DNA of 64,000 nucleotides from Chrysomallon squamiferum (Eukaryota; Animalia; Mollusca), in contig CM022676.1 of NCBI GenBank assembly GCA_012295275.1, positions 12,834,001-12,898,000 of the forward strand. The letters run 5' to 3'. The position numbers and the translations under genes are program-made. The stretch's first letter is position 1, and each line of letters begins with the position of its first letter. Positions 1 to 63,433 of the stretch are shown one piece after another. The notes below the pieces were generated by a model. That model was not told the origin of the DNA. It ran no database searches and worked only from the letters and a program-made list of their open reading frames with translations.

Positions 1-135
1 TGAGATGAAGTAGATATTCAACTTGAAAGATAACTTACAGTAAACATTAATCTGAAGTAGATACTAAAATTGAAGTATATGTTACCGTAGATAATGAGCT
101 GAAGTAGATAGTTAAACTGAAGTATAACTTACAGA
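1..135. repeat. 47-bp tandem repeat built from the Ig4 exon end plus splice donor (gene B copy)
   Basis: Donor-like sites at 132, 85 and 38 (period 47); same unit as the array at 24050-24665. Confidence 0.85.
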
Positions 136-2535
136 AGACATTGAGTCGAAGTACACTAGATTCAGGTCTGGTTTGATTTGGTCTGTCTGTGAACAGATTC
201 TCAACAGTACACTTGTACTTATCTTCATTGTCTTCTTTTGTTGGTGTGATTGAGAAGTTGGATCCCACAAATGAAATGTCATGTTCATTTTTGATCCAGT
301 GAAATTTAGCTGGTGGATTTCCAAACTTACTTCTTGGTAAAGAACAAATCAGTGAACCTGCTTTTCCTTCAAGCCAGCGTTGTGTGGGGTTTGAAGACAA
401 AGATGGCTGACTAGGCGGATCTGAAAATAAATCAGTTGTTAATTACTAAACTGATGAATTGCAAATTAAAAGTGCATCTTAATTTGAAATTGTCACACTA
501 CAAATATGTTACTACTAGCATATGATTGAATAAACATTAACTTTAACCAACAGATCACAAATAAATCCACAAGTGTAACTCTTAATTGGATATATATTAT
601 TTTTAATTATTGAAAGTAAACAATATCTTTAGTAAATGCATACATACATACATATACACATATGTATACACACAAACAAATATATATGTGTACGTATGTC
701 TGTATGCACACACCGATGTTGAAATATATGCAGATATATTTTTACAAATTAATCACAAAAGAAAATCTAATGAAACCAACAAAAAAAATTTCCAATTTGA
801 AAGATGAATGAATATTTTGAACACTTAAATAAATAATAATCTTGAAACAGAAAACAAAAAAGAAGAAAATAAATAAATAAATAGAATTTACATTAAAAAA
901 TAGAATAATAATTCATTTTAGAGTGAGGTAGGATCAAACTCACAGTAAACAGTCATGTTGACAGATTTATTTTCAGTGTAGCCATCATATTTCCAGTAAG
1001 AAGTACAAACACACAGTTTGTTATTCTGAGTCCTGTTAGCTATGAAAGATATTCTACACGTTCTGGTTTCTTCTCTGTCAGAGCAGTGTACAGGATTATA
1101 ACATGTCCAGTTCAGATTTGGTTTTGGGTTTCCACCAGTTGTAGAACAGCTCAGTGTGACAGTGTCACCCTCAAACACAGGAAATGTTGTTCCTGTAATA
1201 ACCGGTGGTGAACTGGGAGGATCTGAAAATATTTGAATTTGACTCTGAAGCAATATTAAGACAAATCTCTCATTGTTTACTAACAATTATTTCCTATTTT
1301 ATTATTCTCCAAAAAAAAAAATAATAATAATAATATAAAATAAAAATACAAATCTCTCATTGTTGACTATCAATTATTTCCTATTTTATTATTCTCAAAA
1401 ATTAAAAAAAAAAAGTTGATGTTAATAAAAAGGTAAATAGAAATGTTAAAATGCAGCATACTGAATAGTTTGAATATCTGAGAAGTATATTAAAATAAGT
1501 AATATAGAAAAAATGTATTTGAAAATTAAGTATATATATATTCAATGTGAACTGGTTATTTTCAGATTGTTCTGTTTTATTTGTACCCTAATTTAATATG
1601 TGTATACTTTATATATAGTTATTATAAATTCAGACTGAGCAAAAAATAAAATAGTTAATTTGATGTAAATAATCTGAAATATCTGAATAACTCACAGAAG
1701 ACAGTCAGTGTTACAGTGTTACTTTCAGACTGTTTTGTTTCAGAGTTTGTCACTGTACACGTGTAAACATTTCCTGCTTCATTCCTGCTGATGTTTGTCA
1801 GTCTCAGTTGAGAGTTTGATGTGAGTTCATCATTTCCCAGCTTCCACGAGTAGGAACAGCTTGGCTTACACACAGCAACACAGTCAACACTGAGATTTTG
1901 TCCTTCTACCACTTCAACAGGTGATGTTAAACTGAGTGTAACAGAGTCTGGACCATCTAAATAATAAAATTAAAACATCATCTACAATATATGTGTTGGA
2001 ATATAATTTTACTTCATATTCTACTTGCATACATATGCACAAACACCTGTACATGTGCACCTGCACACATTCACACACAGACTAATTTAAATATGCCATT
2101 TAGTTTTAAAGTCTAACACTGCACTTTAAAAATGATTAAAAATCCAATAACTGTTTATTTAATATGATAATTACTTACAGTAAACAGGTAAAGTATAATT
2201 GTTGCTCTTGATTAAAGCTGTATTCAGTTTACACCACCAGAGTGTTTCATCATCAGCTGAAGCTCTGTTTATGGTCAGTGTGTAGTTCTTTACACTTGAT
2301 GATCCAGCGTCTGTCCCTTCTCCACACACTGGAGTGTAGCCAGGAGCACGAGCGAATACAACACAACTACCACCAGTCTGATAGAGAGAACCTTTCAGTT
2401 CTGCTTTACTTTCATTTAGTTTATAAAATTTTACTGAGTCACTGAGACCATCAGCCTGAGACACAGAACAAGTAAATGAAAATTTCTCATTCAACACTGC
2501 ATAAGACAAAGAACCAGACATCTTCAGTGATACAC
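133..2535 (-). CDS. Gene B (partial, continues off the left edge): Ig-superfamily receptor ectodomain, paralog of gene A; V-like Ig plus 3 C2/I-type Ig exons
   Basis: Four phase-1/1 exons with AG/GT ends: 2179-2535 (357 nt, V-like, FTC...WWC), 1696-1956 (261 nt, CVAVCKPSCSYSW...YTC), 944-1222 (279 nt, LSCSTTGGNPKPNLNW), 133-420 (288 nt, LICSL...GNPPAKFHW...YKC). The first three match gene A exons 1-3 in length; exon 4 is 1 nt shorter than in A. Leader exon not securely found. Confidence 0.9.
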
Positions 2536-2626: not shown

Positions 2627-2659
2627 GATATATTTTTTTTTTCTGTCAATTGTTTTATA

Positions 2660-3805: not shown

Positions 3806-5514
3806 TTATACTATCTTGTTTAACATATTTCGTTTCAAATATAATCTGACAGTTAATGTATCTGTGTGGTATTTTTGGTAATATTTTTAAAACAGGTGTT
3901 TGTTATGAAGAAGCTTGTATAGTGCAGTCAGACAAACTCAGTGATGCAGGTGGTATAGCAGTTGACTCTGTGATAGGTTTTCTTGTGGCTTCTGTGATGT
4001 ATGGATTTCTTGAAATATTCAGAAGAAAAGGATACATCTGTAAGCGATAACATTTAACTGTATAATATTTATACTGAAAACAAACCAAAAAACAGTCTTC
4101 TTTTGTTGTTTGTTTTGTTTGTTTTTTTATTTTTAAATATAACAGTAAGGACATTTTTACATTCACTTTATGGAGACGAAAATACAAGAAATATCTGAAA
4201 AATTAATACACTGTGTAATGTTGAAATCAACATAATGAAATTGATTCAAATTGCCGTTTGACTAAATGAAATATTTTTTTTTATATAAATATCTAAAATG
4301 TATAATTTAAGATAGGTATACACCCAAATGTACAATCAAAATTCTTAAAGGCAACGCTAGCAGATCAGAATAATTCAGTTAATAATAATGTTCTTTCTAC
4401 TTACTTGACAAACGTGTGTGTGTGTGTGTGTATGTGTCCGTGCGTGTTTAGACTCTTAGAAAGATATATCTATAAAAATATTTGCATGCAAAGATAGAAA
4501 ACTTCAGACATTTTACTTTTTCTGCAGGTAACAAAAATGGATTTACTACGTAAGTTTATTTAGGTTATTTTTACAAAATTCATAAAACAAAAATTTAACC
4601 TTTTTTTTTAGATTTAGTATTATCTAATTTGTGAATGGTACTGAAAATGTACGTTTCACATAAAAGTTCATGTTCAGTGCTGTTTGAGTAAAACTGTTTC
4701 ATCTGTTACGATCTGTCTATTTGTTATGATTTGATTTTATGTGATATTTGCACTTACTTTAAAATAATGGTTTCTTCTTGCAGATACGATGATGTAAATC
4801 TGAGACCAGTAATCACACAAACTAGATCTGGTAAAACATTTAAAAACAGTTAAATTTATGGTTATTTTATTGAAATTTTAAAATAATTTTATTGAGATAT
4901 TCTACATGATGCTTTTATAAATAATAATAATAATTATTATTATTATTATTATTATTTATTTATAACTGAGAAGTTAAAAATATAACTAAGTGACACATAA
5001 CTGTTGGATTATACTGGTCTCACAAAATATAAATGATCTGTTTGTTTTTCACTTAAATTTTTTCTTGCAAAGTGATTAATTGTAATTCACAGAAAATGTG
5101 TCTGAGACTGATCAGACAAATCAAACATACGAAGGACTAGAAGAAAGGAGAAGCTCGGCAGATTACACTAAACTTCATTTATATGAAAACATAAAAAAAC
5201 AGGTTGTAAAAAGAATAATAATAATAATTCTGCAACAGTATAATTATTTTTTTAAAAGAATGTTTATAGTTTGTTGCTACAAAGAAATAATCTAAATATA
5301 TTTTGTCTTCTTTGAAAATATGTTGTTATGATATCCAGTCATAATTAATAATGAAGTGTAACATTAATAAAGTACAGCTTAAAAATATCTGGGCACAAAC
5401 ACTGTCATCACATAGAAGGAAGATCGGTTTACCTCAATTTCTTATAATAATGTCTGAAAAAATAAAACTTCCACTTTGAGATTATGACTCAACTAGTGAA
5501 GCATTTTGTAATAA

Positions 5515-10821: not shown

Positions 10822-10986
10822 TTATTTATCATCTTTATCAGGAAGTGGTTCTGCTTTCTTGTTCCAGTCAATGGAGACGTACTCCACTTTGTCCTGTGTT
10901 TTGTGAACTTGTTTACTTGGTTGTGTGTTAGAGAAATCTATACCAACATACAGCAGCCCATCTTCATCTCGGCCATGATTTTGTCC
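10822..10986 (-). CDS. Terminal exon of gene A with tandem ITIMs
   Basis: GQNHGRDEDGLLYVGIDFSNTQPSKQVHKTQDKVEYVSIDWNKKAEPLPDKDDK*; both motifs fit (I/V/L/S)xYxx(I/V/L); tyrosines 23 aa apart. Confidence 0.85.
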   Translation of the reverse strand, partial: GQNHGRDEDGLLYVGIDFSNTQPSKQVHKTQDKVEYVSIDWNKKAEPLPDKDDK

Positions 10987-12452
10987 CTGAAACAAAAAGA
11001 AACATGTGACGATTAATACAATTAAAGTATTGAACAAAACTGAAAAATATTTCTTTGAGTTCTACGTACATGTACATTGCCCAATATCCACACACTGAAT
11101 ATGTGTTAATATATAAGGCACATGCCATCTTTGTCATGTTAAGTACTATCCAAGCTCCTATATATAATTTTAAATAAAGATTTAAGTCCTTATATCTGGT
11201 TTGTTAGTTTGACACATTCAGACCTCCCCATTCCCTCTGTTTTATTGTTTTCATACTGAAAAACATGTCTCATTGTGTTTCCCTAATAATAGACTTCAAA
11301 ATAGAAATAATCACAGTTAAATGAGAAGACTAGAGGTGATGTAAACTGTTAAACTACTGAGGATGAGACATGTCTGCCCATGACTGCTCTAACCCAACAG
11401 TCTAGCAGTGGTACATTGTGGAGCCAGTACTTCTACAGCTCATTATATCACGAAACACTTTATAATGTCAAAATTAATCAAGTTTCAGTGTAATAAACAG
11501 AAATGTCTATATCTCTGTCTTGGCATTGAAATGTGTTAACATTTGGTCATTCTTTTGTTTTGTTTCTCTCATGTTATAAGGAGATCAAATTTCACGTGTC
11601 AAACAAAAAAAGTTACATACACAAAATTCATAATGAAATGTCAAACTGGGATATAAATTTAATATTTAATGAAATTAAATAAATTAGAATTCTTTGTTGT
11701 TTTGGGGTTTTTTTGACAGGGTTTCCATTTTCTTCGCTATCAGTTTCAACATTTGGTCACATTTTCTTCTTTATGATGACGGCTTCAAAGTTCTGCTAAT
11801 AAGTTCTTGTTTAGATCTGGTTTTATTTTTTATTTTTTATTTTTTTGCTGGGTATAATACTAGTTAAAATTGTCCTTTATTTACCAAGATTCAGGTGTGC
11901 CAAGAGTCAGTTCCATCCTTTTATTTCCTTTTTGATTTCATTCCTTTTAAATTTGTTCAACTTATTTAAGTAATTAATGCTTTGTATAAATGTAGATTTA
12001 TTACCTGGATATTCTGACCTATAGCTCCCTCTCCTTCAAATGCTGCATTGGCATATGTACCATCCTCCCGTACAGCATCAACATTTTCATAAACATCTCC
12101 TGTACACAAGTAACATATTAGTGAGTCAAATGGAATCTCATCATTGACACTGTTCAATGTGTTTATACATTTTCAGATGAATGTTCTTGAATCAAGTAGT
12201 TCCCTTTTTAAACCTATGTATTTATAAACTGTTTGAGTCACTTGAAATTTGTGTAATTATCATTAGTAAAACTATAGAAATGAAGAGTTTCTGAATAGCA
12301 GCTCTATCATGCCTTCAAACAAGTATTAAAATACTAAAATTAAGTTGTAAACAATTTTCAAAATACATTTTCAAAATAAAAACAAATGATAATAATAACA
12401 GAATGTTATCTTGACAAAGAATTAAATAATTTTACTATTTGCAAAGAAATAA

Positions 12453-12498
<46 letters not shown>

Positions 12499-14633
12499 TT
12501 TAAAATATAAATAATATGAAACCTTTCTGTCCTTTCTTCACTTTGTTTTCAGAATCTACTGAAAAGAAAGATGAAAAAATTAATTCGGCTTAAAACAAAT
12601 ATATATATATATATATATCTGGTAAATTAAATTAAATGGATTTTTGCTCTATGATTGTATTTTATCAATATTATTATGAAATATATTGTTAGTATTAAAT
12701 TTAATTTCTATTTAAATTTTTAAAATAAATTAAGTAAAAGAAGTAGTTTAACATTTAAATTATATCAAACAAGCTAAATTTTGCATATACAAATAAATAT
12801 ACACACACAAAGACACAGGTCTGGTTTACTTATACTTTTTTGGATGCAATAATTGTATTAACAAAGTGTATCCAAACTGATGTTATTACAGTAATGACTA
12901 ATTAGATCATGTAATACCACTTGACAGCAGATGTTGTTGCTGACCAGAGGCCATGTTTCCAAATATTTCAGTGGTTAGATTATAATGATGTCATAAAATG
13001 GCACAAACTGCTGTTAGCCAAAAGTGTTGTTTCAATGTCAGTTGAAGTCTGTCATAATAAACAGAACCACTGTATTGTTATTTTTACTACTAATGCCATG
13101 TTGGTTTCATGCTGGGCCTGCACATATATGTAATTTTTACCCCTAGGTTTGAACAACAAATTGGTAAATAATTTATATTGTCTTGCAGCAGCTTTTGTTC
13201 CCACCACATAGAAAAACGTGAAACGTTTCAATGATACATTCTAATATAAAACAATTGTATGAGGGACTTGATCGAACATGTTCATGCCTGCATCAGAAAG
13301 AAAATTGATCTGATGATCTTTTAAGTTAAAACAACAGAACATTTCTGCATTTTTCAGCCAGATTTATTGATTTTATCAAATGCATTATAAACAGCTATCA
13401 TTTAGCATGAACAAAATTTTATACAGAATAACATAATCTAAATTGTTCATAGATAAATTAGGCTGAAAGTTGTAGCTATTTTGCTGCTATCCACATTGCA
13501 TCAATTCATCAATTAGATACCCATTTCAACCTATCTTGTGGACTAATAGTCTTTTACCAAGAAAGCATGACTGACAAACCCAAGATGATTGTCCAAAATG
13601 ACAACCAAAATTTCATTGCCAGGGACGACTGTAAGCATTAGATCATGGTGTTGTGAGTTTTATGTAACTGAAACTGTTGTGACAAAATACATTACTTTTA
13701 CTGTGGTAGTATAGTTATTTTAGACAGTGATGATTAGTATATAAGTGTCTATCTCAGTTGTCAGTGTCTGAATTTGGAATCAGTTACTGGTTTCGGGTAG
13801 GATTCTTGTAAAAGATGTGACATCTGATTTCATGTAACTGTAAATTACTTTATCTGTTAATTCAATTTACAAACCTTTTTCTTTCTTTTTCTTTTCTTTT
13901 TCCTTTTTCTTTAACTTTAAATCTTGTTTTACCTTCTTTTTTTTCTCATTGGCAGATTCTGTTTGGCCTTTTTTACCTGTAATTTGTGGGAGAAGTAGCA
14001 TTAACTGATAAAACAGTTATCTGTTTTTCTTAACTAACAATTAAGAGATTAAACAAAGAAAGGCAGATTTTTATTTAATGATGCAGTCAATGCATTTCAT
14101 TTGTATAACTTATAATTATGATTATAGACTACAGAAAAATAAAAAATAAAAGTTCCAAACAGCCCTTCATGTTATTTCTTATTATTTGTTTTAATTGTTT
14201 TTATTACCTTCTTTACTCTGACTAGCTGTAGACTGACCAGGCTTTGTTTTCTTTACAACAGAATACAGACTTTCAGGATTCTCAACTGTTAACCCAGAAC
14301 TTGCACTTGGCTGAGGATCAGTTTGACTTGAATCATTTCCTGCTATAATAAATACAACATATTAAACAAATGTCACTCAATTAAATATAAAAATGTCAGC
14401 AACATCAGACACTTGACTCTTTGAGCAAAGTATATTATAAATATGAAATATCTCATTTCTGAAAATGTGTAATTCTTTAAACCGATAAAACCTAAAATAT
14501 TAGTAAAGCGGTATTGTGTCACTGTTTATTCATTTTGTTCTTTTTTCTTTTTCTTAACGGAAAATTACTAAAATTGTTATTTTCTAAATTTGATAATAAT
14601 ATCCTTGTTATCAACAAATAATAGTACTAGATT

Positions 14634-16209: not shown

Positions 16210-19200
16210 ATGGGGTTCATCATAGATGTGTTTCTACAAAATAACAGAAATAAATTATTTTTTGTTTATATGTATCTAAATAAATTATTGTTTAATAAAA
16301 TAATATATTTTTCATTTGTATTTTAACACAACAGAAAAGTTGTATATGGTTATATGAAAAGAATATTTCATGGAAACTATTTGTGCTAGAGATTCTAAAT
16401 ATATATATTTATTATCCAGATTTAGAATATCTAGCAAAAATAGTTTCCATGCAGCATCTTCCCAAACATCTTAGGATAATATGAAAGGAAATATTGAGAA
16501 AAACCCCAAAAGAGTTTTATAAACCATATTTCCATTAAGCGGTGATGTTAGCCATTATTATTATTATGTTATCTGTGTATATCCACTTCCTACTGCAAAA
16601 AACCTGAATTATTTACCTAAAAAAATAAATGTCTTAGATAATTTCCTAAAGAGCCATATCAAAAACTAAAAAACTATATTTTTTATTCAGATTTTATAAT
16701 TTTTGGCCTAGCATGTCCCCTTAACTGATAAAAAACAACAAAAGTTAGACATGAAATGTTAAAACAGTGAGATATAAACAAAACAAAAAGACAAATATGC
16801 ATTGGCATTATTGAGGAAGGAATTAACGAGACTGAAATCTGGTATGACTTGTTTTTGGCATCCTTTGTTAATATTATTATTGTTTATTGGTCATAAAAAT
16901 GATTAAAATAATATTGGACATGAAAATCAGAATGGAACAGATAATAAAGATACATTGATAGATGGATGGGTATACATAATTTACTTTAATTTTACAATGA
17001 AAGAAAAGGAAATCATATTCATTATCAGCATTTGTATGAATATTGCTAAAAGTAGATGAATATAAGTAATGTATTTTTTAATTGTAATAACTGAAAAGTT
17101 GTACTTAGAGTAAGAAAACCATTTTGACTTTCATGTTACTAAATTCTCCCAGAACAAATGTTTATTTTAATTTTTTTACATATAAATAAACTAATACCTA
17201 CCTGATGGTTTTGATTTATTTAAATTGTTATCTTTTGATGTATAGTACAAATCATTGTCTTCCAAAACTGGAGTTAAAAAAATAAAAAATAAAAATATTA
17301 ACTGTCATGAAAATAGAGAATCAGAAAAAAAATTCTTAAAATAAATAAATAAATGAAATATTTATAGATGTAATAAAATTAAAACTACCATTATTTTATT
17401 TGGACATCAAAAGTGTAATTGGTTCTTAATTGATTTTTATTATTATTATTATTATTATTATTTTATTTTTTATTTTATTTTTTTATTACATTTATTTTTA
17501 CATATACAGTGGTACCTCGAGTTACGAGTGCTCCAACTTTCGAGTTTTCCATGTTGTGAGCAATTGCCTGGTCGATTTTGTGCTTTGAGTTGCGAGCCAA
17601 AATCTGAGTTACAAGCGAGCTTCAGATATGCTGCTGCTAGTTGGCACAACGAAAAACACAACATCCACCCAGCATGGATCCTAAGAAAGTGAGTGCAGAG
17701 AAGAAGAGGATCATGTCCATTGAATTAAATCATGAAATCATAGAAAAATATGAGCGAGGTATGCATGTAGTCAACATGGCTAGGCAGTACAAGCATACTA
17801 CTTTTATGATATGTACCATACTGAAGCAGAATGAGTCGATAAAGACTATAACTCCAGCCAAAGGCATTAAAATAAGTTCTAACATGTGGACCTCTGTCCA
17901 TGAAAAGATGTAGAAACCCTGACCCTGTACACTTTACAAAACCAATATATTTCTTTACATTATCTTATATTTTGTCTTTTTATACAATATTTGTCATTTA
18001 TACATATATATTTCTTAATTAATAACATGTTGCAAAACATTTGGTTGGTTTTGGGAGGGCTGGAATGGATTAATAGGATTTCAGTTAATTTTATTTAGGA
18101 AAATTGATTTGATATACGAGCAAATCGAGTTACAAGATTGGTCATGGAATGAACTAAACTCGCAAGTCAAGGTACTACTGTATTTTTAACCTTAATAAAA
18201 CTCAAACCTGGCAATTTGAGTTTTCTTTTGTCATCAGACTTCAAATACAAATCATTATCCACCAAATCTGAAGCAAAAACAACAAAATCTTTTTATTTAC
18301 TTATATATTAAGTCTCACAGGACATAACATCTATATTAAAGCAAATAATAGCTGTAGCCATGTAAACATTTCTAATGTTCGTCAGCTACTGAAGATAAGG
18401 CACTGTCTTTTGTCTTTCTTCTTCAAACAAAGAAAATGTATTTCTGATAAACACTGATTTTGTAAATCAAAGATAAATGTTTATTTCTAATGGATTCTTG
18501 AGTTAACTATATTTCATGTTCAGTTTGGTATTTCAGAGTAATATATTGTTTATGAATCACACCTGGCATTACTCGACTCTTTAATCTGTCATCACGATTC
18601 ATGTAGTACAACTCATTGTCTTCTAGAACTAAAAGATGAATCAGTTATTCAAATAATTAATATATTCCATTCTCATTTCAAAAGTTTATTATGAATTTAA
18701 TGCAGTTAAATGGCATTTAAAACTAAAATGATTAGTTCAAAGTTAAAGATTCCAAAACTGTTCTGCAACAATGAATGACAACATCTTTAAATAAGTGGTC
18801 TAATAAAATTCTTTATACTCGGACATTATTACTTTATTGTCATTTTCGTAACATTAGCAGAGCATGAAAAGAAGTAGTATTACAAAAATCTGAATTCAGC
18901 AATTTTATCTATTTCCATAAAAATTGGTATCTTCTCACATATATGTCAGTGTCATAGATGGTGATTTTTACTTTTCTTTCTTTATTTTCTGACAAGACAA
19001 GACATTTTTTTTTCAGATCTTGTTAGTTTGATTTCACAACTACTCTAACAAAATATTTTTCAGATGTGATTAATTCTGATAATTTTAGTTAAATAAAACT
19101 GATTACCTGGCAAAACACATTCCGCATTACAGTTTGTCTGCCTGCACAAAAAATAATAATAAGATACACATTAGTACAGATAGAGAAATTTAACCTTTTT

Positions 19201-20542
19201 ATAGTTAATTTTATTATTTTGAACTTCAAATAGTTTTCTTTCCTACTTAAATATTAAAAATTAGTTATTACTGCTATTGTTTTGTTGTTTTGAAAGTTTC
19301 TTGATCATCAAAAATATCATAATGGAGTCATTGTAATAAAGAAGCTTCATGGATCAAGTAAGACAAACTGGAAAGGAAACTGGCTAGTATTTTCCAAAGC
19401 ATTTTCTGTATAAACATATTTTTAAATTTTTATCATCCTATAAAATTATTTTAAAAGTGTAGCCAACACTTCAACATACATAGGTGTAAATTTTGTTTAA
19501 CCATTTTGTGTTGTTTTCTTTTTTCTCCATTATTTTCATTATTTATTCAGTTATCTTTTTTTATTATTATTTTATTTTGTTGCTTGCTTCCTGAAGTCTG
19601 ATTCAAACACAGAATATCAGAACATGTACACCATACTCTGTGCAAATTAGATTGTAATACTGAAATTATCAAACATTAAAAACATTGTATTTAAAGTTTA
19701 AAAAAATGATGTATTTTTTAATGATGACAATCACAGACTTTGAGAAAAAATAGAGAAGAATGAGCATTTTTTGTTTCTTTCATAATACCTGGTTTTATCA
19801 AATTACACAAATGTTACTGAAACAATCATAGATTTATAGCTTGCTTGCTTCAGGGAAACACTTTGTATTAAATAAACTATTTTAAATAAAAATAAAATAA
19901 ACCACCAGCTATCAGCAAACGAAGAGAAAATATAAAGATTTCTGATGAGATTTATTAACAAACTACTATATACATTTCATATGGTGATTTTTGATATATA
20001 TATGCGTATTTTTGAGTGAGGTAAACTCTTAAGAAAAACAACAAGAAAAAAGAAAATGCAAAGAAAAAGAGATGGCTTCAAATAAAGGATGTAAACTTAG
20101 TAAAACTTCAGCATATAAACCTTCAGATGTGTTGAATGATTCCAGTAACATTAGAATATGTTGTTAAAACAAAACACTTTTTTGATACCATTTCTCATTT
20201 TTCATTTTTCTAAGATCTATATTTTGGTTGACATCTGGACTTTGTTTGGGTTTAGACCAAATTCAGGCTAGCTATTTATGTTACATGATTCATATATATA
20301 ATAGGTGACCCAAGCACATTTAATTAATAAGATAAACAAAACAAAAAATGTTTGGTATACCTGAATGAAGATTGTTCCAATATGAGTTGCATTAATAAAC
20401 AGCAAAACTTAACTAATTATGTTCCTCACATAAATAATGACTAATGAAATACAAACAAAGAAAAGTCACAGGGAAAGTAAAAACAAATTAGGATGATTTT
20501 TTCTTTTCTTTCTTATTCATCTGGTTTTAATAAAAATAATAA

Positions 20543-20574
<32 letters not shown>

Positions 20575-23500
20575 GGAAAATATACTCACAAAGCATTTTC
20601 AGCATCCTTTTCTGAAATATAAAAATTAATAGAAATAAAAATATCAGCAATAATAAACATTTTTTCAAAAACTAGTAAATGTAAATTCAAATGACAAATA
20701 ATTATCCCAAATTTTATAATTTTTATTTTGTAATTATTTTTTCTTTATTATGCATTAAATACCACTTATTTGACTAAGTTTATTATTTAAAATTATATAA
20801 AATAACAGAATACAGTTCTCAGATAATGAATATAATTAATACTTTTTTTTAAATTGTCCTGTTTACAAGTAATAAAATCATACTCTTTTTGGTGGATAAT
20901 CCTGGTAATACCCGTCTTCTAAGTAACACAATCAGTGTCACTATGACAACAATGACAGTCACAGAACCAACAGCTCCTCCTACAGCTGCACCAAGCAGAG
21001 CACCTGGATCACTCAGCTTTTCTAAATCTGTCATAGATAAACAATATTTTGCATTTATAAAACTGCTACAAAAAATAGGAACAATAATATTTTACTGTTC
21101 TGAAACCAATAATGTTATTGCACTACTTGCTAATAGCTGCCTGAGTATTAACTCCAGTTTGATCTCTCAGATAGTCCATTTGTTTTCTTAAAACTTCTGA
21201 AAACAAACCCATATAAATGATAATTAAAATAAACATACCCTCTACATGTACCAATCACTTGTATTAATTCTGACATGACACAAACTTAGCACAATCTTTT
21301 TTTGATGAAGCCAAATATCAAACATTTCATGGACCATGATTACCTCATCTACTAAACAGGAATTATCAGTAACCTATTAGTATTAAACTTGATTTGGGGT
21401 TGATATTTTGCATGGATCAGTCTTGGGAAGATCATTATTTCAATACATTCAATCAATAATCACACAACACACTAACATATAACAACAAATAATAAAATTT
21501 AAAAAAAAAGAAACCTGTAATAATTGCACTTGAATATATATTTCAGTTTAAATTATGTAGATATTTGTCAAGACGAAAACAAATATTTTAAAAATTATTA
21601 TATTAATAGAAAATGTTAAATGACCTTCTGTGGTTACTTTAATGACAACATAATTGCTCATATTGTCTGAAGTTCTTGTGTTTTCAGCTGAGATTCTCAC
21701 ATCATAAACTGTTTTATCTTTGAGACTGGTGATGTTATAAAACACTTTCTGTCCTTGTGTTGAGTCATCAAACCAGTTACTTGTCCAAGTAATCCAGTTA
21801 GAGTCACTTTGTGGTTTGTACTGCAGCATAAATCTTTGTTTGAAATTACCACCTGGGTAGTTAGGTAGCCAGGACAAGAACACTGTGTCTGATGTTGATT
21901 CTCTTTCTTGTTGGAACTCTTTAGGAGGAAGAGGTGGACCTGCTCCAGTTAGGTTCACAGAAAACTGAGAACATCCAACTTCATTACAGACAGTCAGTTT
22001 GTACGTTCCAGTGTCATCTTGTGTGAAGTTTGTGATTTTCAGTGAAATTCTGTATGCTGAGTCTTTAATTAGTTTGCCGTGAATTTTCAGTGTGACATTT
22101 GTCTCCTCAACATTCGTATTATTAAAACTTATTTCACTGTCAGATTTCATCCAGGTATAATTGTTCATAGTGGGTTTACAAAACAAAGTTTTTACTAATA
22201 AAACTGACTTTCCAATTTCAGCTCCCACAATGTCATGATTAGTTTCCATAGTGATCTCTGGATTTGCTGAAATATGAAAAGGAAGAAAAAAGATAAAATA
22301 TATAAATAAATAAATAAATACATAAAATGATTTTCTAAATCACTGACACAACAGATTCATATAATTATTAATAAAATGAACAACAAATATTAAAGTCAGT
22401 CAGAATGCATGCCATATACTTAAATAGCACATGCAAACAATAATCATTCTAAAATATTTCTAATCATTGTTTTGTTTTGTTCCTGATAAGAAATGACACT
22501 CATTTAATGATGCTGTAGTGTTTTGATGTTTATTTAGAAAAATGTCTGCGCTCTAACACAAAGGAAGTGATTGGTTCCATTGTTGAAACAGATATATCGT
22601 CAAATCAACTTTTAGAATCTGAATTTTGCCTGCAGGTTAGTTTACTTATTCCATGTAACAAAAAGATCAAAATACAAGTGAATAAACATTAATATGAAAA
22701 GTTTTGTGTCACTTGCAACATTTTTGGCAAGCATTTCTGTTTTCATTTACTTGAATGTTTTAAACTACAATCTGTTCTATGTAATGGAGAACAGAAGCTG
22801 TGGGTGATGAGAAATGGGTAAATGTTTACAGTACTTTAAAAAAACAAAGAAATATTAAAAGCTATCATTACAAGTTTAAAACTTAAAGTGTTTATTTTTA
22901 AACCAGCATATCTACAAATTATATTTTAAAATATCTTTAACAAATGCATGAAACATATTTGAAGTTTTCACCTTTAACATAAAATAAACTGTAGCCAGTC
23001 TGCTCCAAAGTTCCACTTCTGTCAGGAATCCCGTTGTGCACACTACACTGGTATGTTCCACTGTCCTGATACGAAGCAGAAACAAACATCAAACTGTATT
23101 TGTTACGTCCAACATGTCTGCCTGTCACTTTTCTAACAAACACTTCATTCCAGTAATGTTTGAAATCTGAGAAGTTCATGTTGTCAGGACGACCATCAGC
23201 AGAACAGTTTAATTTTAGTAACATGTTTTCTGTTAAATTTTCAGATGGGAAGCTGACATCAGGAGCATCTGAAATAAGTCAAGAAAAAAAAAAAAAAAAA
23301 AATCAAATTACCAGGTTTGTTTTGGTAAATTATTTAATCTGACATGTTATAAAGATTATATATTGTAAAATCATTTGAATGTTGTTGTTGACAAACATCT
23401 CCATATTTCAGTTATTTATATAATTGGAGTAATTCTGTTCAAGTGAAATGTTATTATGAGATTTACAATTGACAACAAGTCCCCCCCCAAAAAATCAATG

Positions 23501-25015: not shown

Positions 25016-26294
25016 GTAATAACAACAATACACAGAAAAGTGAAACTGGTTTAAATATTAAATGTATACATGATGAGAACACAATAACATTGTTTATAAG
25101 TGTGACAGGAAGAAAACTCACAGTAAATAATCATATTTGTAGATTTACTTTCAGTGTAGCCATCATATTTCCAGGAAGGAGTACAAACACACACTTTGTT
25201 ATTCTGAGTCCTGTTAGCTATGAAAGATATTGTACATGTTCTGGTTTCTTCTCTGTCAGAGCAGTGTACAGGATTATAACATGTCCAGTTCAGATTTGGT
25301 TTTGGGTTTCCACCAGTTGTAGAACAGCTCAGTGTGACAGTGTCACCCTCAAACACAGGAAACGTTGTTCCTGTAATAACCGGTGGTGAACTCGGAGGAT
25401 CTGGAAAATAATTTTATTTTAAATGAAATAGAAAAATTAGCATTTTCATCAAATCTTCATTTGTAGTTAGTAAAAGTGTTTTCATGAAAAGTAAATATTA
25501 ATAAATCGATAAATCGAACAATTTTAAACTGCTAATATGAATGTTTGAAAGCAACTGTTTTTTATGATTAACATTTCCATCATCAATCAAATTAATGACT
25601 TTTATATGCACACTTAAATTTAAAAGAAGAAAAGATTGAAAATAATATTCCATTAAATTAGTAGTTACTTTGAGATATTAAACATTCATGTTTTGCAAGA
25701 AGAACTGAATAACTCACAGTAAACTGTCAGTATCAAGGGAATAATATTATAAACTAAACACTGTACAACTCACAGTTAGCAGTCAGTGTCAACTGGTTAC
25801 TTTCAGACTATTTTGTTTTAGACTTATCCTTATTTAAATCTTGTTAATGAAATAGTTAAAATAGTTAAACTGATGTAAAGAGTATTAAAGACAAATCTGA
25901 ATAACTCACAGTGGACAGTCAGTGTTACAGTGTTACTTTCAGACTGTTTTGTTTCAGAGTTTGTCACTGTACATGTGTAAACATTTCCTGCTTCATTCCT
26001 GCTGATGTTTGTCAGTCTCAGTTGAGAGTTTGATGTGAGTTCATCATTTCCCAGCTTCCACGAGTAGGAACAGCTTGGCTTACACACAGCAACACAGTCA
26101 ACACTGAGATTTTTTCCTTCTACCACTTCAACAGGTGATGTTAAATTGAGTGTAACAGAGTCTGGACCATCTGAAATAATTAAATTATTATTAAATAAAT
26201 ATTACCTACCTGTGAGAATGTAATTTTACTTCATATTCTACTTGCACACACATGGAGATACACATTTGCATGTGCATTTGCACACACTCACACT

Positions 26295-55600: not shown

Positions 55601-58600
55601 TACATAAATAGAAAATATGATTAAAATAATTAAATGAGCATGTAGAACAATCATAAATTAATAATTTTTACAAATAAAACACTACAGAATAACAACTATT
55701 GTCTGAGTAAAATTATTGCATAGTTTAAACTGCACGTAAATTATTCAGTAATCTGAAATTGATACAGAAATTAAATTAAAATAAACATGATAAATGTTTG
55801 TGCATAATTACATATACAGTAAAAATTGCAATTTACAAAGGTTGCAAAGAGAGACTCAAGGCAGAGTCTGAAGTAATTGTAAACAAATATTAAAATGAAA
55901 CATTTGTTAAATATTTTAACAGTTATCGCATGAATCTGTGTAAAATATTTTGTTACAAGCACTGTTTTAATAGAAACTGAATATTAGTGTATATATGGAG
56001 ATATTTAATTTCATTTTCATAACAAAGGCTGGTTATATCTTATTTTCTTATTTCACGATTTCACGTTCACATAACTTCACTTCTCCCTATTTATCTAACA
56101 TAGCTTGAATCTTGTATTAATATATATACATTGATTTTTAATTTATTTTTTTAATTTGTGATGTTTAATTATTTTACAGATAATGATCATAGAAGTGGCT
56201 GTGCTGTTTTTCTTGATTGCTAACAATTCTGTAAAAGGTATGAACGGCAGTAAAATTACATAATAAATTACTGTAAATTATCATTATATTTAGGCATTTT
56301 AGAAAAAAAAGTTCCGATGATTTCTTTAAGTATTAAGTTATATTTTGATACTATGTATATATATGAGTATGCATAGGCCTACCTTGAAAGTAGCTTTGCA
56401 GTAGTATTCCTGTTTGCTGTCAGAAATTTCAAAGACTAACATATTCAGATTTTTCTATCTAGGGGTCATGCATTTCTCTATCCTACATGGGAACTGAGAT
56501 GTTGCCTTTTATTTCTATGGCAGCATGTAACCATTTTGAAAGAAACAAGAATAACAACAAAAAAAAAGGAAAAAAAGGTTAAAATGATTAAAATGAAAGA
56601 CAAATTACTTTAGCAGTGAATATTTAATGATTAGTTTTTGCTGCAGATGATTATAAAAGACTATACTTAATATTGTTTTATTTTTTTATAATTTATTTAT
56701 AATGTTAATGCCCCACAATATCACCAAAATCAGCAAAATAAAATCCAGATTGATGAGACAACTAATAAATACAGGTTCTATTGTATTATGAACTAATACT
56801 GAATGCAGGGCAATTACTGGACAATTAATTGTTCACTGGACGACTGCTCACCGGACATTTGCTCACTGGACAATTAGTCACCTTTAGGCTTTTTTTTATT
56901 AATATTATTTTAGTAATAAAAAAGACAACATAATTTTTTGTTGATAAAAAAGAACATAAAACAGAATGTCCCAAGGCACAGCTCTAAGGCAGTTACTGTG
57001 ATTATAACGTGTTTCACATGTTCAATACTGATTACATTATAATTTTAAGGTAACCATTAAAACTTTATTGTTGGTTTAGGTAGTCAAACTTTTATTCTTA
57101 TGTGTTGTTTTTAGTAATTATTTACTTTTTAGCATTTTATCTCTACTCTGCAAGGCTTAACATTTTGATCATCACAGATTTAAAGAGAAATTAGAAAATA
57201 TTGCTGATTGAGAATGAATTTTGCTATCTTTTTTATTTATTTATTTATCAGAGATTGTTACTCCCACCAACCATTTACACATACATATGATAACCTGAAA
57301 TAAAATTTATTGAAAAAAGTCAATGTTGTGTTGAGCAGTTGTTCTACTTCTCACTTTATTGGTGAGCAACTGTTCATACACTACTAATTTTACTGTAAAT
57401 ATAACTGTAGAGCTTGTTACATAAAGAAAGCTAAAATAGCAACATCTTACAAAATATAGACCAAATTATAATGCAGAAAAGACAAAACTGTTATTTTCAC
57501 CAATACATAATGTATTAATTATTGTCTATGATCAGTTTTTTTGTGTAAAGGCCTTTAATTTATTTAAATTAACATAAAACTTATTTGACGTAGGTTGAAT
57601 GAGTTGTTCATTTTTCAGGTGGTGTAACGAAGACATACATAGATTGTGTAAGACCAGGTTATCCTGGACACAAGTCAACAGTCATTTGCAGAGTAAATGA
57701 AACTGTGCAAAATGGTTTACAAATGTTTCGTGCAAATGGTGATCAGGTACTGACATGTGATGCTGCTCACACTGTTTGTTTTCCAAATGGAAGAATAAGT
57801 GGTTACAATGCTACCATTGACCCAAGTACAAAAGATGTCATATTTACAATATGGTCATTCAATCCTGACATAGATGTTGGAACCTGGACATGTGGTGATG
57901 GATCAAGAATTGGAGTTGGTGAACCTACATGTAACAAAACTGAATTAAGTATGTAAATATAAATATACATAAAATAATTGCAGTTGAATATTAATCGCTG
58001 AAGCAAATTGATAATTGTCTTTATAAATGTTTATCAAACCTGTTTATAATGACCACACATGGGATGTCTCTAAAGTGGCCTTTACACACAGGTGACCATT
58101 ATCTAGAGGCCCTTGATTTAGTAATTATTATTAGTTTTTTTTTTTTTTTTTTTTTTAACCTTAATATTACAGTTATAAAAAATGTAAGTGACAAGTACAA
58201 ATACTTTTGTGTGAAATAACATTTTTTATTTTATAAGATAATTTCCATGTTAGTAAATAATGTTCATTGTTTAAAATAGTGAGTTTGATAGTTTTCCATG
58301 TCATTGCACATGTAATGAAAACATATGTTTAAAAAAGTTAATTTGAGAACAGATGACACCAGCATAATAATCAGTCTTTCATACACTTAAATTTTTTGTT
58401 CATATTCTTTTAATAATGTTGATTTTCTGATGTTAAAGCTATGAAATTTTGCATGAAAACTCAGGAAATATTGACAGTAACGTTTATAAGATAGTTTGTT
58501 TTATTGAAAACTATTACCAAGATGGCATGTTTAACTAAGCTTTTTAATGTATGACATCCAGTGATAGTTTGATTATTTGGTAACTCAATAAGCAGCAGCT

Positions 58601-61600
58601 AAAAATGTAATCTTAATAATCTTAAGAATCTTTATTGATTGCTGCCAACAGCTATTTATATCTGTTGATCAGTTATCTTATTATGTCTAAATTAGCAAGC
58701 TCTTTGAGTAAATTTCTTAATAAGCATAATGTAATTACACAATGCAGTAACAACAGTTAAAAATTGCATTAGGAACAGCAAATGATAGCTGGGTATTTAA
58801 ACAACTCTTAACTGCTTTGAGTACAACAATGGAGATCCAGTGAAATTGTCTCATTGTTGTAACATTGTGTCAGAGAGGTTATTGAGTGTGTATGTTTTTC
58901 AATTACCGTCAGCAGAACTTGGTTAAATTTGCAAATACTGAAATGTTGTGTCCATTACAGTAGGTTCAGTTGACTCTTATCAGTTAAAGAAGGAAATGCC
59001 TTTTGGGGCATTTGTGGTGACCGTTACAGCCAAGTGTTCTTCTGAACAGGTACCTGTTAGACCAGTTTCGACTGTGTTTGTGTGTCCATCTATCTATAAT
59101 TTTGATAATTCAAACTTGGTGGTGTCAAAAAATAGTTTAGCTTTCAGGAAATTCAAAATTTTCAAAATTCAAATACTTACAGGAATTCCAACTGATGATA
59201 CTATGTTGTAATAAACATACACTCTTGCATATTTAATTAACTTAGTAAGTACAAAACAGTAAAATACACAACTATAATGAATTTGACATACATATCCAGA
59301 TACTAGAACATGTGTGTGTGTGTGTATTTGTGTGTTTTTGTGTGTGTGTTCATGTGTTTTCAGATTTCCTATCTTGGCAGAACGGAATTAACACAGTTTG
59401 TTAACTGGCCTTTAATTACAAGCAGGATTTTTGGCTCGATATGCTCATTTGTAAGCAAAAACACACCAATAAATGAAATTTAACACTTTACAATAATTCT
59501 TTGGTTATGTGTTATGTAAAGAGGACTTGCACAGATGATCAGTAGTAAGTTAATTTCAGTCTTCTTAATCAACGACCCATTATTTGTGGAAACAATAGCT
59601 TGATCATTCCAATACTTTGAGTTTTCAGAGGCAAATTTCAGTTAAATCACTAGTCAGGGATTACAAAACACCTTTCGGAAAGAGAGATTTTCACGTTATT
59701 GGTATTTGAATTCTTGAAGGTCATTAACAAGGTATATAAGAGTTCGGTGTGATAAGACTTTCATTTCTAGACATATAAGTGTTTGAAACATCTGAGTATG
59801 AATTTTGAAATCTTGACTGTGTGTTGCCATTTATCTTAAGTTTATCAAGGTTGTTAAATGTGTGGTAATTAAAGGATTATGGAACACTTAATAACTTGAT
59901 TTCTGATTTATCAGAAATGAAAAACCACAGCTGTTCTGACAGTTTATCACATTCAACTAAAAGTTTCAAAATTATAAAAATGATCTATTTGTTGAGTGTT
60001 AACATATTCTTTTATATATATATCTAAACATATTACAACATTAACTACCAATGACCAAGATAGGTTTTGCCCATAATACTCATATGCCTAACAAACATTC
60101 ATTTAAAATCAGTGTGGCAAAACACAAAAAATATAAATTGTCTGACACTAATAATAGTTTGATTAACTAAACATTATTTTTTAAAGTAATCATTAACCTT
60201 TGGATAATTAATTTTTTTGTTTTGTTTTTAACGTTGTCAGTTTCTAAAATTTGCCTTTCAGACAACATCACACTGATTCCACCAGAACCTGGTGAAGTTA
60301 CTGAAGGAGAGAGTCTGGATGTAACATGTGATGCTAACTGTAAACCACCTTGTTCATTTTCCTGGATGCTTGAACAAACAGAAATAAGCAGCTCATCACA
60401 GCTTCATCTCAGTAATGTAAAAACTGAACAGAACGGGGAAGTGTACACATGTATAGCACAGAATTCTAAAAAAACATCTCAAAGTATAAACTTCACACTG
60501 ACTGTTAAAGGTAAGATCTGCACAGTTTATGTGATAATCTTTCCTATATTGTTTTCATTTCAATATATTTCTTGTGCACAAAAAAAAACAGAGTTAAGCC
60601 ACACACCTGTCAAATGTCAATTATGTATTCTGTAGTCACTTAGTAGTTAGTGGCAACTTTTTCTTTGCACATTTAAACAAAAAAATAGCATTTGACTTGG
60701 AAATGTACCATACTGCTGAAAAATCATTAAAAATTGTTCATTAAATTGAATTTGTATACATTTTTTTAATTTTTAATTTTTGCATTTAGTATGTACATAT
60801 GAAAGGAATGAGGAGAAGTTGTGAGTTATCTACTCTCAGTAGGTGGCATAGTCTGTACAGGATTAGCGATGTATTGTTTACGACAAAAGCTATTGCTAAC
60901 AATGAGAAGTTACTATTCAGTGTATAACAATTAGTCTATGCCATCATGTCACTAAAGTGGAGACATTTTACCATTGTAATAAATACTGGTGCTCATGACA
61001 GCATACATCTAATTTATAACTAAATATAACCAATGTAGATTACAGACTTGTATGAAAGTTGTATCAGAACAAATATTATGTTGAATATCATTAAACTTAA
61101 AAACAAACTTGCTCTCTTCCTATGTATAAAACATTTCATTCTTTAAAACAAATGTTTGTACAAAGCCTAACATCCTTAAACAATTTGCCTCAAATGATAT
61201 GAAAAATAACTAAAAGACAACAAACAAACAGCTGTATATTAAATTGTCACTCTCACATGATACTTCTCCTTTCCACATTACTCTGATATAATTTGACCAA
61301 AGAAAATGTGTTGACTTGTGCTTTTTGTTTTAATTCCCTATGGATAAGATTCCTCAAACCATCTTTTTTTCTTCTTCTTTTTTTTAATTAATTTCTTATT
61401 AAATTTAAAATATTCTAAAAAGATGTGTTTAGATGTAAAATTGGTTGGGAATTGTACTATGTATGCATTTTGAGGGTGAGAGGGTAAACACAATAACATA
61501 AAATATATTATAGTTATGTTATATAAATATACTGTTTATAATAGTAAATAATGATACGGGTGCACAGATTGAAATTCTACATAACCCATTACTGGTAATC

Positions 61601-63433
61601 CTTTCATAAATCATATTTTTGATTTTTAAATATTGGTAATAATACATATATGATAAGGACTATGAGAGATAGATTATTATTTAAACAGTTCATGGAAAAT
61701 CCTGAATAAAATGTGCACTTCAGAAAGCAGACTTTTTATTTTTATTTTTTTCTCCACATATTTGTTTTTAGAGGGCTTTTCGAATCTCAATGTGTTTTTC
61801 TTCTGTTGGGGTACATGTTATTTCTCTGGATGATTATATTTGCTGTCAAGATGCCAGTAACTAAGGTGCTTACTATCTCATCTATGGGATATAGACATTT
61901 ATAAAATTATGACAGGGATTAGTAAATTCAAATTGTGACAGTAATGTGTTATCATGATGGTAAAATACATATCCACTGGATAAATCAACAAGAGTGCAAA
62001 TTTAAGATTAGAAATTACCTTTAAAAGTTTATCATATATTTTCCTGTAAAAGGGTATTACAAATGCCAAACAGAACTTTAGTTATTTGCATTCATCAGTA
62101 GATAAAAGGCAGTTTTTTCACTTATTATCATTATTAATATATCATTTACTTAATATTTGTCTTTGATTTATCTTTCCTCAATTTCATATATAGAGATAGA
62201 TAATCTCAAGTTTATATAAATACAAGAATTAGTACATTAATAAAATTATCTGTAGTTAGTATACATGTAAGAAATATAACTTCTGAAATACATTTTATAG
62301 AAATCTTGGTTTTACGTTAAAACAAAGATGAGATTATATATATTTGTCACATTGATATCGTGAAAAAATAGGCTATAGATCTCTGGATTTAAAAAATAAA
62401 ATGCTTAACAAATTTTATCTTAAAGATTTTGGCAGCACTTAGATAATTTAGTTTTAAATAAAGAAATGTATTGCTGTTTGCTGAAAATATAAAGAAATAT
62501 TAAAAATTAGTTTTTGGGGGGTTGCTTTTTAATGTACAGTTTTATAAATTAAATTGATTTTATGGTAAAAGAAATAATCGAAAAGGCCATAGTTATTTTT
62601 GTTAGAAGGAAAAACATTGTTTATGAATGCTAGAAATCTATATTAAGCTTAATAATGGTTATAAATGTTTGAGATAAAGGTATATAAAATGACATTTTGA
62701 AAATTTTATTTTGTGTATGTGATAAATTAATGGTTATCTATAAAATTGGATTATAAGTTACAATGAAAACACAGAATTACAATTTAACTTACATAAGGAA
62801 TAAGTTTCCATAAAAATAGAAATTATCAAAGCAGTGGAAGCAAGGCCATTAATTAGCCTAAACAGGAACTTTTCCTTTTTAGCTGAAGAAAGAAGTACAA
62901 CAAGTGTTGCTACAACAACTCCAAACCTGGGATCAGGTTCTGGCTGTAACTTAGTTTGTATTATCCTCATTACAGTGATCAGTGTCACAGGTCTTTGTAT
63001 AATCATAACATGCTGTCTGATATCACAAAGAAATCAAAAGACAAAGAAAAATGATAAAACTACAAATATTGAACTGAGCAGTAAAATGAACATTGAAAAG
63101 TCTCAAACTGAGGTTTCTGTTGATATCAAAGCAGAAGAAAATTGTAACATTCAAGAGAACATTGACAAAAAACATGACACTGAAGATGTAGAAACTTCAC
63201 AGTCTGTCAAAGATAGGATTGCTAATGAATCTTCGTACAATATGTCTGGTAACCATGGAAGTGATGAAGATAATGAAAGTTCTGAAGATTACTCATATAA
63301 TCAGACAAATGTAAAACCGTCAAATCAACCAGTCAGTAAAGATGTCTGTAAAGAACTCACAAAATCTGAAGTTTGTCAACAGTCAGTCACTGATTCACTG
63401 AATAAAACTGATGTGAGCAACAATACAGCATAG
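55313..63433 (+). CDS. Gene D: type I membrane protein with signal peptide, V-like Ig, C2-type Ig, Ser/Thr stalk, TM and acidic low-complexity tail
   Basis: Exons 55313-55318 (ME), 56180-56237 (IMIIEVAVLFFLIANNSVKG), 57619-57948 (6-Cys V-like, DVGTWTC), 60262-60510 (CDANCKPPCSFSW...YTC) and 62883-63433 (TM CNLVCIILITVISVTGLCIIITCCLI, stop TAG) splice in frame with AG/GT ends. The ATG at 56183 is an alternative start. Confidence 0.85.
56805..57376 (+). mobile_element. MITE-like non-autonomous element, copy 2 (intron of gene D)
   Basis: Sub-terminal ggacaattgctcacc-type repeats with inverted ggtgagcaactgttc; body colinear with 42775-43410. Confidence 0.7.

Follow-up and report, generated by a model that had tools for sequence, protein, structure and literature searches.

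The window, by which we mean the whole 64-kb stretch of DNA analysed here, is likely part of a marine snail genome. A sequence-only reading had placed four membrane-protein genes in it, and all four loci (A, B, C and D) are present, but locus C comprises a 3' half only and gene B is cut by the window edge. The genes are clustered, the ITAM exon of C lying 5.5 kb from the ITIM exon of A, and CpG-rich zones are found at 37-39 kb and 3-4 kb. The features are as follows.

133..2535, minus strand: gene B ectodomain exons V 2535-2179, Ig2 1956-1696, Ig3 1222-944 and Ig4 420-133, running off the window edge
3896-4039, plus strand: locus C transmembrane (TM) exon (sequence model; related RNA contigs)
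4528..4830, plus strand: locus C short tail exons 4528-4549 and 4784-4830 (YDDV); the first letters of the 22-nt exon are present in RNA loose ends
5093..5295, plus strand: locus C last exon, ITAM YEGL-x8-YTKL plus YENI (AATAAA at 5366)
10822..10986, minus strand: gene A last exon, tandem ITIMs LLYVGI and VEYVSI (splice model, motif scan)
12005..14339, minus strand: gene A tail exons c6-c9 (SLYSVV, VYENV, TYANA), c7 off frame (splice model, motif scan)
17202..20611, minus strand: gene A tail exons c1-c5, of which three are repeats of an (L/V)xDNxLY exon (splice model)
20884..21027, minus strand: gene A TM exon, TM without a charged residue (splice model)
21625..22266, minus strand: gene A Ig7 and FN3 exon (splice model, Pfam); within the window, the RNA loose ends that precede C-type TM exons match best at its 3' end
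22972..23268, minus strand: gene A Ig6 exon (splice model, Pfam)
23658..23924, minus strand: gene A Ig5 exon (splice model, Pfam)
24642..24930, minus strand: gene A Ig4 exon, shifted out of frame by one base within a run of A (289 nt against 288 nt in B; split tblastn match)
25122..25400, minus strand: gene A Ig3 exon (splice model, Pfam)
25910..26170, minus strand: gene A Ig2 exon (splice model, Pfam)
26442..26798, minus strand: gene A V-set exon, which has C57 and C70 as an additional Cys pair (splice model, predicted fold)
38168..38222, minus strand: candidate, unproven leader (signal-peptide) exon of gene A (phase-1 GT donor score 9.0, hydrophobic core, CpG-rich zone, in-frame join)
56183..63433, plus strand: gene D, with leader 56183-56237, Cys-rich Ig-like domain 57619-57948, Ig 60262-60510 and stalk, TM and tail 62883-63433 (sequence model)

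Gene A had been described as a 7Ig-FN3 receptor with ITIMs, and the model bears this out: 18 exons run from 26798 to 10822 on the minus strand, every intron is GT-AG, and the predicted product consists of a V-set domain, six further Ig domains, an FN3 domain, a TM and a tail. Pfam finds the Ig domains and the FN3 domain, the V exon scoring weakly (E 0.003-0.04); the latter is predicted to adopt a V-set fold (pLDDT 95.6), with antibody and TCR V domains as top PDB matches. The Ig domains keep their Cys pair, and the TM resembles those of the Gigantopelta aegis proteins P0001, P0002, P0003 and P0005. Three motifs in the tail match the ITIM consensus (SLYSVV, LLYVGI and VEYVSI), the chance of such a pair given the composition of the last exon being 0.0008, and the tail is predicted to be inhibitory. 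The link between its ectodomain and the ITIM tail is predicted from splice-site modelling and from an abalone homologue described below. Two exons are off frame, Ig4 through one extra A and c7 (13976-13933) at an A8 run; omitting both leaves an open frame of 992 aa. The frameshift in Ig4 may be either an assembly error or a real lesion and, given two off-frame exons, gene A could be a pseudogene. The A/B dN/dS ratios near 1 (0.8-1.6) would also fit relaxed selection.

Gene B is a paralogue of A, as proposed, with identities of 94/118 in V, 83/86 in Ig2, 84/92 in Ig3 and 80/95 in Ig4. The accompanying suggestion that its V domain is diverged holds in part: V differs more than Ig2 (p 0.0003) and more than Ig2-4 pooled (p 0.005), but not more than Ig4 alone (p 0.48). 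Positive selection on V between A and B was not significant (dN/dS 1.6, p 0.38). No leader exon for B or C was found in the window; one suspected for B near 3400, similar to the candidate leader of A, proved no better than shuffles at either the protein or the DNA level. Gene D encodes 394 aa with zero internal stops, comprising a leader, an Ig-like domain, an Ig domain, a TM and a tail, and a motif scan found no ITIM or ITAM match in it, in agreement with its earlier description as a two-Ig member lacking signalling motifs. Its first domain gives a modest predicted model (pLDDT 64.5) with V-domain matches.

Locus C was read initially as an ITAM protein with an acidic TM and no Ig exons; the ITAM tail stands, whereas the Ig-less reading and the acidic-TM adaptor do not. 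By itself the ITAM motif says little (4% by shuffle). The tail as a whole, however, shows homology to an ITAM tail from G. aegis, with 23/56 identical residues and a score of 132, where shuffles reach at most 48. Three RNA runs (X1, X2 and X3), with contigs from one study, were used, the run word shares (0.03-0.09) being left out of the evidence. Contigs from two of the three span exactly the TM exon of C, at about 91% likeness (10 and 13 differences listed); from X3 no contig covered this exon, which is uninformative. Both contigs splice the C-type TM exon to an FN3 domain at the 3896 acceptor. Their 5' loose ends each match the end of the FN3 exon of A at 25/30 positions, the best match in the window (200 shuffles reached at most 22). 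On the 3' side, the loose ends enter the 22-nt exon of C. Spliced transcripts are therefore seen for the C type, although the contigs do not derive from the window's copy. As the contigs show only 30 loose letters, we infer the link of the FN3-joined transcripts to the ITAM exon, and the same-species activating ectodomain is covered by 30 nt only. The TM Asp (3964-66) occurs in the window copy only, both contigs having Gly, and a Glu near the cytoplasmic end of the TM (4012-14) is common to the window copy and both contigs. C-type TMs occur in at least three variants (those of the window, X1 and X2), which may be alleles or paralogues.

The window contains no Ig or FN3 exon upstream on the strand of C. 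The window's C would be a 3' half, either displaced or orphaned, that lacks an ectodomain in its own orientation. We put it at close to an even chance that C is an orphaned relic. It is less likely, though well worth considering, that C and B are one gene split by inversion or misassembly; comparison of 2630-3895 with the introns, FN3 exon and upstream region of A gave only microsatellite matches, and hence no inversion breakpoint was found. That the ectodomain of C lies to the left of the window seems unlikely.

The relatives of these genes in other gastropods clarify how ectodomains and tails are combined. G. aegis P0002 follows the ectodomain of A through its successive exons (44-65% identity), and its two terminal ITAMs show homology to the tail of C; the tail of P0003 is of like kind, and these tails have the canonical dual-tyrosine ITAM spacing, repeated in tandem. 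No ITIM tail on an A-type ectodomain was found among the G. aegis proteins, of which P0004 and P0005 are partial. In the abalone Haliotis cracherodii, by comparison, the tail of the V-Ig-FN3-TM protein P0124 matches the last exon of A (45% over 47 aa, E 3.6e-6; score reached by 0/1000 shuffles). Tail exons c5 and c4 also resemble P0124 (score reached by 0/1000 and 11/1000 shuffles); c3 shows no resemblance in the same test and c6-c9 give no significant match to it. A second abalone protein, P0011, has a tyrosine-rich, ITAM-like tail, and the contig size common to P0124, P0011 and P0137 (45,300,709) suggests that all three lie on one scaffold. The similarity of the abalone ITAM tails to C is borderline relative to chance. 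Because G. aegis joins the ectodomain of A to the tail of C, and abalone joins a family member to the tail of A, one ectodomain type carries either an ITIM or an ITAM tail.

The ectodomains appear most alike within a lineage. The Ig7-FN3 region of A is 60-63% identical to the G. aegis ITAM members and 30% identical to the abalone ITIM member, and in the tree it groups with the G. aegis rows (93/99); the tree support (93/99 and 83/89) falls below the tool's mark for strong support and P0124 sits on a long branch. Likewise, Ig3 identity is 88-94% within species and 60-71% between species. The same pattern is described for vertebrate paired receptors (PMC3210942) and, as in those, the tails seem to predate the relationships among the ectodomains. 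In the V family, which is large and diverse, 159 clusters are found at E<=1e-10. Among its matches 35/150 were long enough to examine, and of the 25 with a TM two have an ITAM and one an A-like ITIM tail. The names given to the family in databases (such as hemicentin-like, titin-like and syg-2-like) hide its probable paired-receptor nature.

Taken together, it is probable that the window holds part of a gastropod-expanded paired-receptor family in which V-set, Ig and FN3 domains are joined to an ITIM tail (A, from the genome model) or an ITAM tail (C-type), as the sequence-only reading had proposed in outline. This family is likely a mollusc counterpart of the vertebrate paired immune receptors. 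On the model of the vertebrate and oyster receptors, a surface ligand would be bound by the V domain farthest from the membrane. The clustered ITAM form would recruit Syk/Shark and lead to phagocytosis or inflammation, and SHP/SHIP phosphatases brought in by the ITIM form would dampen the response. The ectodomains would be kept alike by gene conversion or by an exchange of tails, such that both forms read one ligand. This ligand would most likely be a microbial or self surface and the receptors would be carried by haemocytes or epithelia, while motif-less members such as D may be adhesion molecules or decoys.

An unlikely though serious alternative is a lineage-expanded adhesion family of nephrin/SYG-2/CEACAM type. 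Its tyrosine motifs would act in adhesion or in signalling to the cytoskeleton (Nck, Abl, SHP2), in neurons, epithelia or biomineralising tissue, and not in immune pairing. The Ig-rich layout with a single FN3 domain fits it, nephrin, Sns and SYG-2 sharing with gene A the order of multiple Ig domains, one FN3, a TM and a tyrosine-bearing tail, as do weak matches to Drosophila nephrin and, in the PDB, to CEA, Robo, DSCAM and SYG-2, the YDDV of C, which we take to be Nck-binding-like, and the fact that most TM-bearing members of the V family are without ITAM or ITIM. Ig and FN3 proteins are, moreover, described in the sclerites of the scaly-foot snail (PMC11871041). However, the identity to Drosophila nephrin (23-24%) compares with about 60% to several G. 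aegis paralogues, so that these genes are not single-copy nephrin/Kirre orthologues; they are multi-copy, fast-evolving and lineage-restricted. That one type of ectodomain carries two separate, conserved kinds of tail, and that the ITAM spacing is repeated in tandem in G. aegis, also argues against this alternative.

It is improbable that C is a free-standing ITAM adaptor, either DAP12/FcR-gamma-like or type III from the in-frame ATG at 3856, pairing with A-, B- or D-type chains. Adaptors of the DAP12/FcR-gamma type have their own leader, a tiny ectodomain and a conserved acidic residue in the middle of the TM. The short Cys-containing stalk of C, a frame open from 3856, the nearby CpG-rich zone and the lack of upstream Ig or FN3 exons would suit such a protein, but the FN3 junction in both contigs, the Gly in place of the TM Asp, the missing leader and the TMs of A and D, which carry no basic residue, do not. 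A search for homologues of the TM exon of C, short ones included, returned none (eight candidates; a weak search).

An allorecognition complex in which allele-specific V binding decides between self and conspecific non-self, as in Hydractinia Alr or Botryllus FF/FcoR, is very unlikely. To our knowledge, gastropods are solitary animals without natural fusion, and we know of no fusion or rejection biology in snails. This part of the initial proposal finds no support in the named matches, among which there is no Alr-like protein, or in V selection; the C-type TM variants and the 15 of 24 A/B differences in V that fall on the C-C'-C'' and F-G segments (p 0.04, post hoc) would be in keeping with it. 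Alr and FF/FcoR are described as IgSF genes of invertebrates that lie in clusters and bear ITAM/hemITAM and ITIM tails (PMC9546547, PMC12582321), and the snail family shows the Alr-type layout of a V-set, I-set and FN3-like ectodomain on ITAM/ITIM tails. They are, however, proven allorecognition loci of colonial animals, to which no sequence link was found. Alr proteins have two to three atypical Ig domains, domains 2-3 being described as lacking the Cys pair kept here (PMC9546547), and in Botryllus ligand binding and signalling are reported on two separate genes.

Returning to the paired-receptor reading, CEACAM1/CEACAM3 (an ITIM against its own ITAM), Siglec-5/14, PIR-A/B and KLRC share with the snail family like ectodomains on opposing tails, a membrane-distal V domain and clustered genes. 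There is no orthology, the best PDB match, CEA, being a generic Ig match; the snail family, known here from sequence, has a longer 7Ig and FN3 ectodomain and an activating form that bears its own ITAM and has no basic TM residue for an adaptor. Among molluscs, oyster CgIgR (five Ig and an ITAM), which binds bacteria and recruits Syk (PMC6994640), and the inhibitory CgIgIT/IgIT2 are Ig receptors with tyrosine motifs, likened to the present family by description only. The text consulted describes no FN3 in CgIgR, and reports the oyster receptors as single genes and not as a shared-ectodomain pair. The 'CEACAM5' orthogroup OG0000013 of Lan et al. (2021) contains 130 genes in G. aegis and 101 in C. 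squamiferum, four CEACAM5-like genes being high in the symbiont-housing gland (PMC7895826), and the pearl oyster has clustered Ig-FN3-TM genes with copy-number variation (PMC9646362). These too are likened by description, ITAM and ITIM being unmentioned in the text searched of both papers. The literature searched contained no description of a gastropod paired-receptor family, molluscs being represented by single receptors only, and non-vertebrate ITAM/ITIM receptor clusters are described from a cnidarian and a tunicate (PMC9546547, PMC12582321).

A bolder view, which we hold tentatively and at somewhat less than even confidence, is that gastropods evolved a true paired-receptor system independently of vertebrates, in which gene conversion or tail swapping preserves the likeness of a single Ig-FN3 ectodomain borne on ancient ITIM and ITAM tails, motif-less decoys being present as well. 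In symbiont-bearing vent snails such a system would balance tolerating against eating bacteria, and a real inversion may have divided a single activating gene into B and C, giving a structural on/off polymorphism. Inhibitory and activating pairs with a shared ectodomain are a central design of vertebrate innate immunity. If the paired-receptor reading is true, a gastropod family carrying both tails on one ectodomain would carry this design into the protostomes and allow convergence to be tested against a deep origin, and it would provide concrete candidates for how snails and abalone tune their responses to microbes or symbionts.

The cluster of four genes claimed by the sequence-only reading is real, with exon structures found at the paralogous Ig receptor genes A and B, the TM-and-tail locus C and the two-Ig gene D. 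Their closest proteins are those of the vent snail Gigantopelta aegis (60–62% identity, five matches among 459 candidates), followed by abalone proteins at 25–29% identity, so the DNA probably comes from a gastropod related to G. aegis. The features of A and B are as follows.

26798 to 10822, minus strand: gene A as modelled, 18 exons, all with GT-AG ends
38222-38168, minus strand: candidate leader exon of A, in a CpG-rich zone
2535-133, minus strand: gene B, four exons with 85–94% DNA identity to A, continuing past the window edge

The modelled exons of A encode, in order, V, Ig2–Ig6, Ig7 with FN3 (a single exon), TM and ten tail exons. A Pfam scan confirmed the Ig and FN3 domains where scanned, Ig4 being covered via B's copy and not A's; the V exon falls under the Pfam cut-off but is predicted to adopt the V-set fold, with strands C, C' and C'' present (pLDDT 95.6). 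In the tail, the (L/V)xDNxLY repeat occurs three times and the ITIM consensus is matched at three sites, of which the last two have, as a pair, a chance probability of 0.0008. The Ig4 exon and tail exon c7 are each one base off frame at A-runs, for which homopolymer error is plausible, and omitting both leaves a 992-aa open frame. Possible further tail exons lie on the minus strand at 16233 (KHIYDEP, broken by a CA repeat) and 14932 (EKYEKP), with phases that show no simple fit to A. The intron that follows Ig4 contains a 47-bp minisatellite in A (24055-24662) as well as in B (1-153); the repeat unit resembles the Ig4 exon's own end and splice donor, giving many cryptic donors.

In locus C the TM exon is followed by two short exons and then by a final exon carrying YEGL-x8-YTKL. 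C had been read as an Ig-less ITAM protein with an acidic TM, and within the window there is indeed no Ig or FN3 exon upstream on its strand; a leader exon was sought and not found. RNA contigs over 3815-4075, one each in two of three runs (one study) and 90–95% alike, cover the TM exon alone. At their 5' loose ends, 25/30 letters in each contig agree with the 3' terminus of A's FN3 exon, the best match anywhere in the window (200 shuffles reached at most 22). Their 3' loose ends include 16 nt from the start of the 22-nt exon of C; ungapped 30-mer scores against that exon (24 and 21) are close to the shuffle maxima, since a few additional exon letters precede it in the contigs. In C-type copies the TM exon is thus joined by splicing to an ectodomain of A's type. 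With 10 and 13 listed differences from the window copy, and 7 between the two, the contigs come from C-like copies and are not evidence for the window copy's own expression; their TM exon is 6–9 nt longer, which suggests that window C has lost the usual donor. The Glu close to the cytoplasmic end of the TM is retained in both contigs. An adaptor reading is not supported, given the junction with an FN3 exon and the replacement of the TM Asp by Gly in both contigs: C is one half of an A-like receptor, the half with the TM and the ITAM, and a free adaptor is the least probable of the readings considered here.

The 1.4 kb separating B's V exon from C's TM exon, on opposite strands, is a geometry that would fit a single B+C gene split by inversion; however, the CpG-rich zone between B and C is like those found upstream of A and of D, and B may have its own promoter there. 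In A (20611-20590, minus) and C (4528-4549, plus) alike, a 22-nt, phase 1-to-2 exon directly follows a 144-nt TM exon, a shared layout that suggests descent of both tail types from one ancestor. Just past the YENI motif of C lies an A-run (5190-5210, plus). If it differed by a single base, the C-terminus would change in length, which leaves the hydrophobic end of the tail model in doubt.

Relatives in other snails carry both tail types. The ectodomain of G. aegis P0002 corresponds to that of A exon for exon, and the P0002 tail, ending in two ITAMs, aligns without gaps to that of C (23/56, score 132; shuffle maximum 48). Among nine relatives' tails examined from protein homolog matches, five have ITAMs, one has wider-spaced YxxL motifs and three have neither; none is A-like. 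A V-domain profile search returned 311 clusters at E≤0.001 (159 at E≤1e-10). Among 150 listed matches, 35 were at least 250 aa, 25 of these with a TM. Two of the 25 carry ITAMs and one has a tail like A's; the others show neither, bar stray single matches. The A-like tail belongs to P0124 of the abalone Haliotis cracherodii (V..Ig..FN3-TM), whose contig has the same length as those of P0137 and P0011, suggesting that the three lie on one scaffold. A's last exon and exon c5 each match the P0124 tail (0/1000 shuffles reach either score), c4 matches weakly (11/1000) and c3, c6, c7 and c9 do not match.

When 15 Ig-FN3 segments next to the membrane are placed in a tree, A groups with five G. aegis rows, including ITAM ones (93/99), and P0124 stands apart on a long branch. 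Since A's tail matches P0124 but its Ig-FN3 segment groups with G. aegis ITAM proteins, the tails look older than the ectodomain relationships, a pattern that is suggestive only, a G. aegis ITIM member being absent from the proteins recovered. The same pattern in vertebrate paired receptors has been termed 'merohomogenization' (PMC3210942). The same V domain also occurs in other architectures (P0026, P0027, P0081, P0006), including tandem V-I repeats, a draper-like-named protein and an apparent multi-pass membrane region, and seems to be a recognition module that moves between proteins.

The claim of a variable V domain is weakly supported. Amino-acid identity between A and B is 94/118 in V, 83/86 in Ig2, 84/92 in Ig3 and 80/95 in Ig4; V divergence exceeds that of Ig2–4 pooled (p 0.005) but not that of Ig4 alone (p 0.48), the V-domain dN/dS of 1.6 does not reach significance (p 0.38), and the test that places 15/24 V changes within segments C-C'' and F-G (p 0.04) is post hoc. 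The description of D as motif-less is borne out for ITIM and ITAM: it encodes an intact 394-aa protein (leader, Cys-rich Ig-like domain, Ig, stalk, TM and tail) whose tail gave no ITIM or ITAM match in a motif scan. Its two domains each have G. aegis relatives (35–51%), and the model of domain 1, although modest (pLDDT 64.5), matches V domains.

The window is 31% GC animal DNA, with introns and microsatellites. CpG observed/expected peaks at 0.7–1.1 at 3001-5000 (between B and C), 37001-39000 and 55001-56000, against 0.04–0.3 in gene bodies, and these peaks likely mark promoters or insertions; A's gene body is CpG-poor, unlike the zone around its candidate leader. Between A and D lies a young Gypsy-type LTR retrotransposon (47946-52846, plus). 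Over 194 nt its terminal repeats are 97% alike; the gag-protease, RT and integrase-like frames, identified by eye, are broken by a stop and a frameshift. One transposon-like element has four decayed copies (6595-7396, 17500-18183, 28112-28765, 30028-30370; 69–82% alike).

A paired-receptor family is the probable reading, better founded than at first sight but through a different anatomy, with ITAMs on an A-like receptor. By analogy with vertebrate receptors and oyster CgIgR (PMC6994640), and under published motif definitions (PMC9546547), a ligand on some surface would be bound by the V domain, ITAM members would recruit Syk/Shark, leading to uptake or inflammation, and ITIM members would recruit SHP/SHIP to restrain them. 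Short-tailed members such as D would, on the same analogy, be adhesion molecules or decoys. A non-immune adhesion family is unlikely as a reading of the whole. An allorecognition complex, for which Hydractinia Alr and Botryllus FF/FcoR are neighbours in print, is unsupported and has little probability. Other published neighbours are oyster CgIgR and IgIT (PMC11999971), pearl oyster Ig-FN3-TM gene clusters with copy-number variation (PMC9646362) and an expanded 'CEACAM5' orthogroup in G. aegis, where four like-named genes are high in the oesophageal gland (PMC7895826). The ITAM/ITIM literature searched on molluscs (gastropod, bivalve, abalone, snail, oyster, Gigantopelta and Chrysomallon), with most subscription journals outside its coverage, describes no shared-ectodomain ITIM/ITAM pair.
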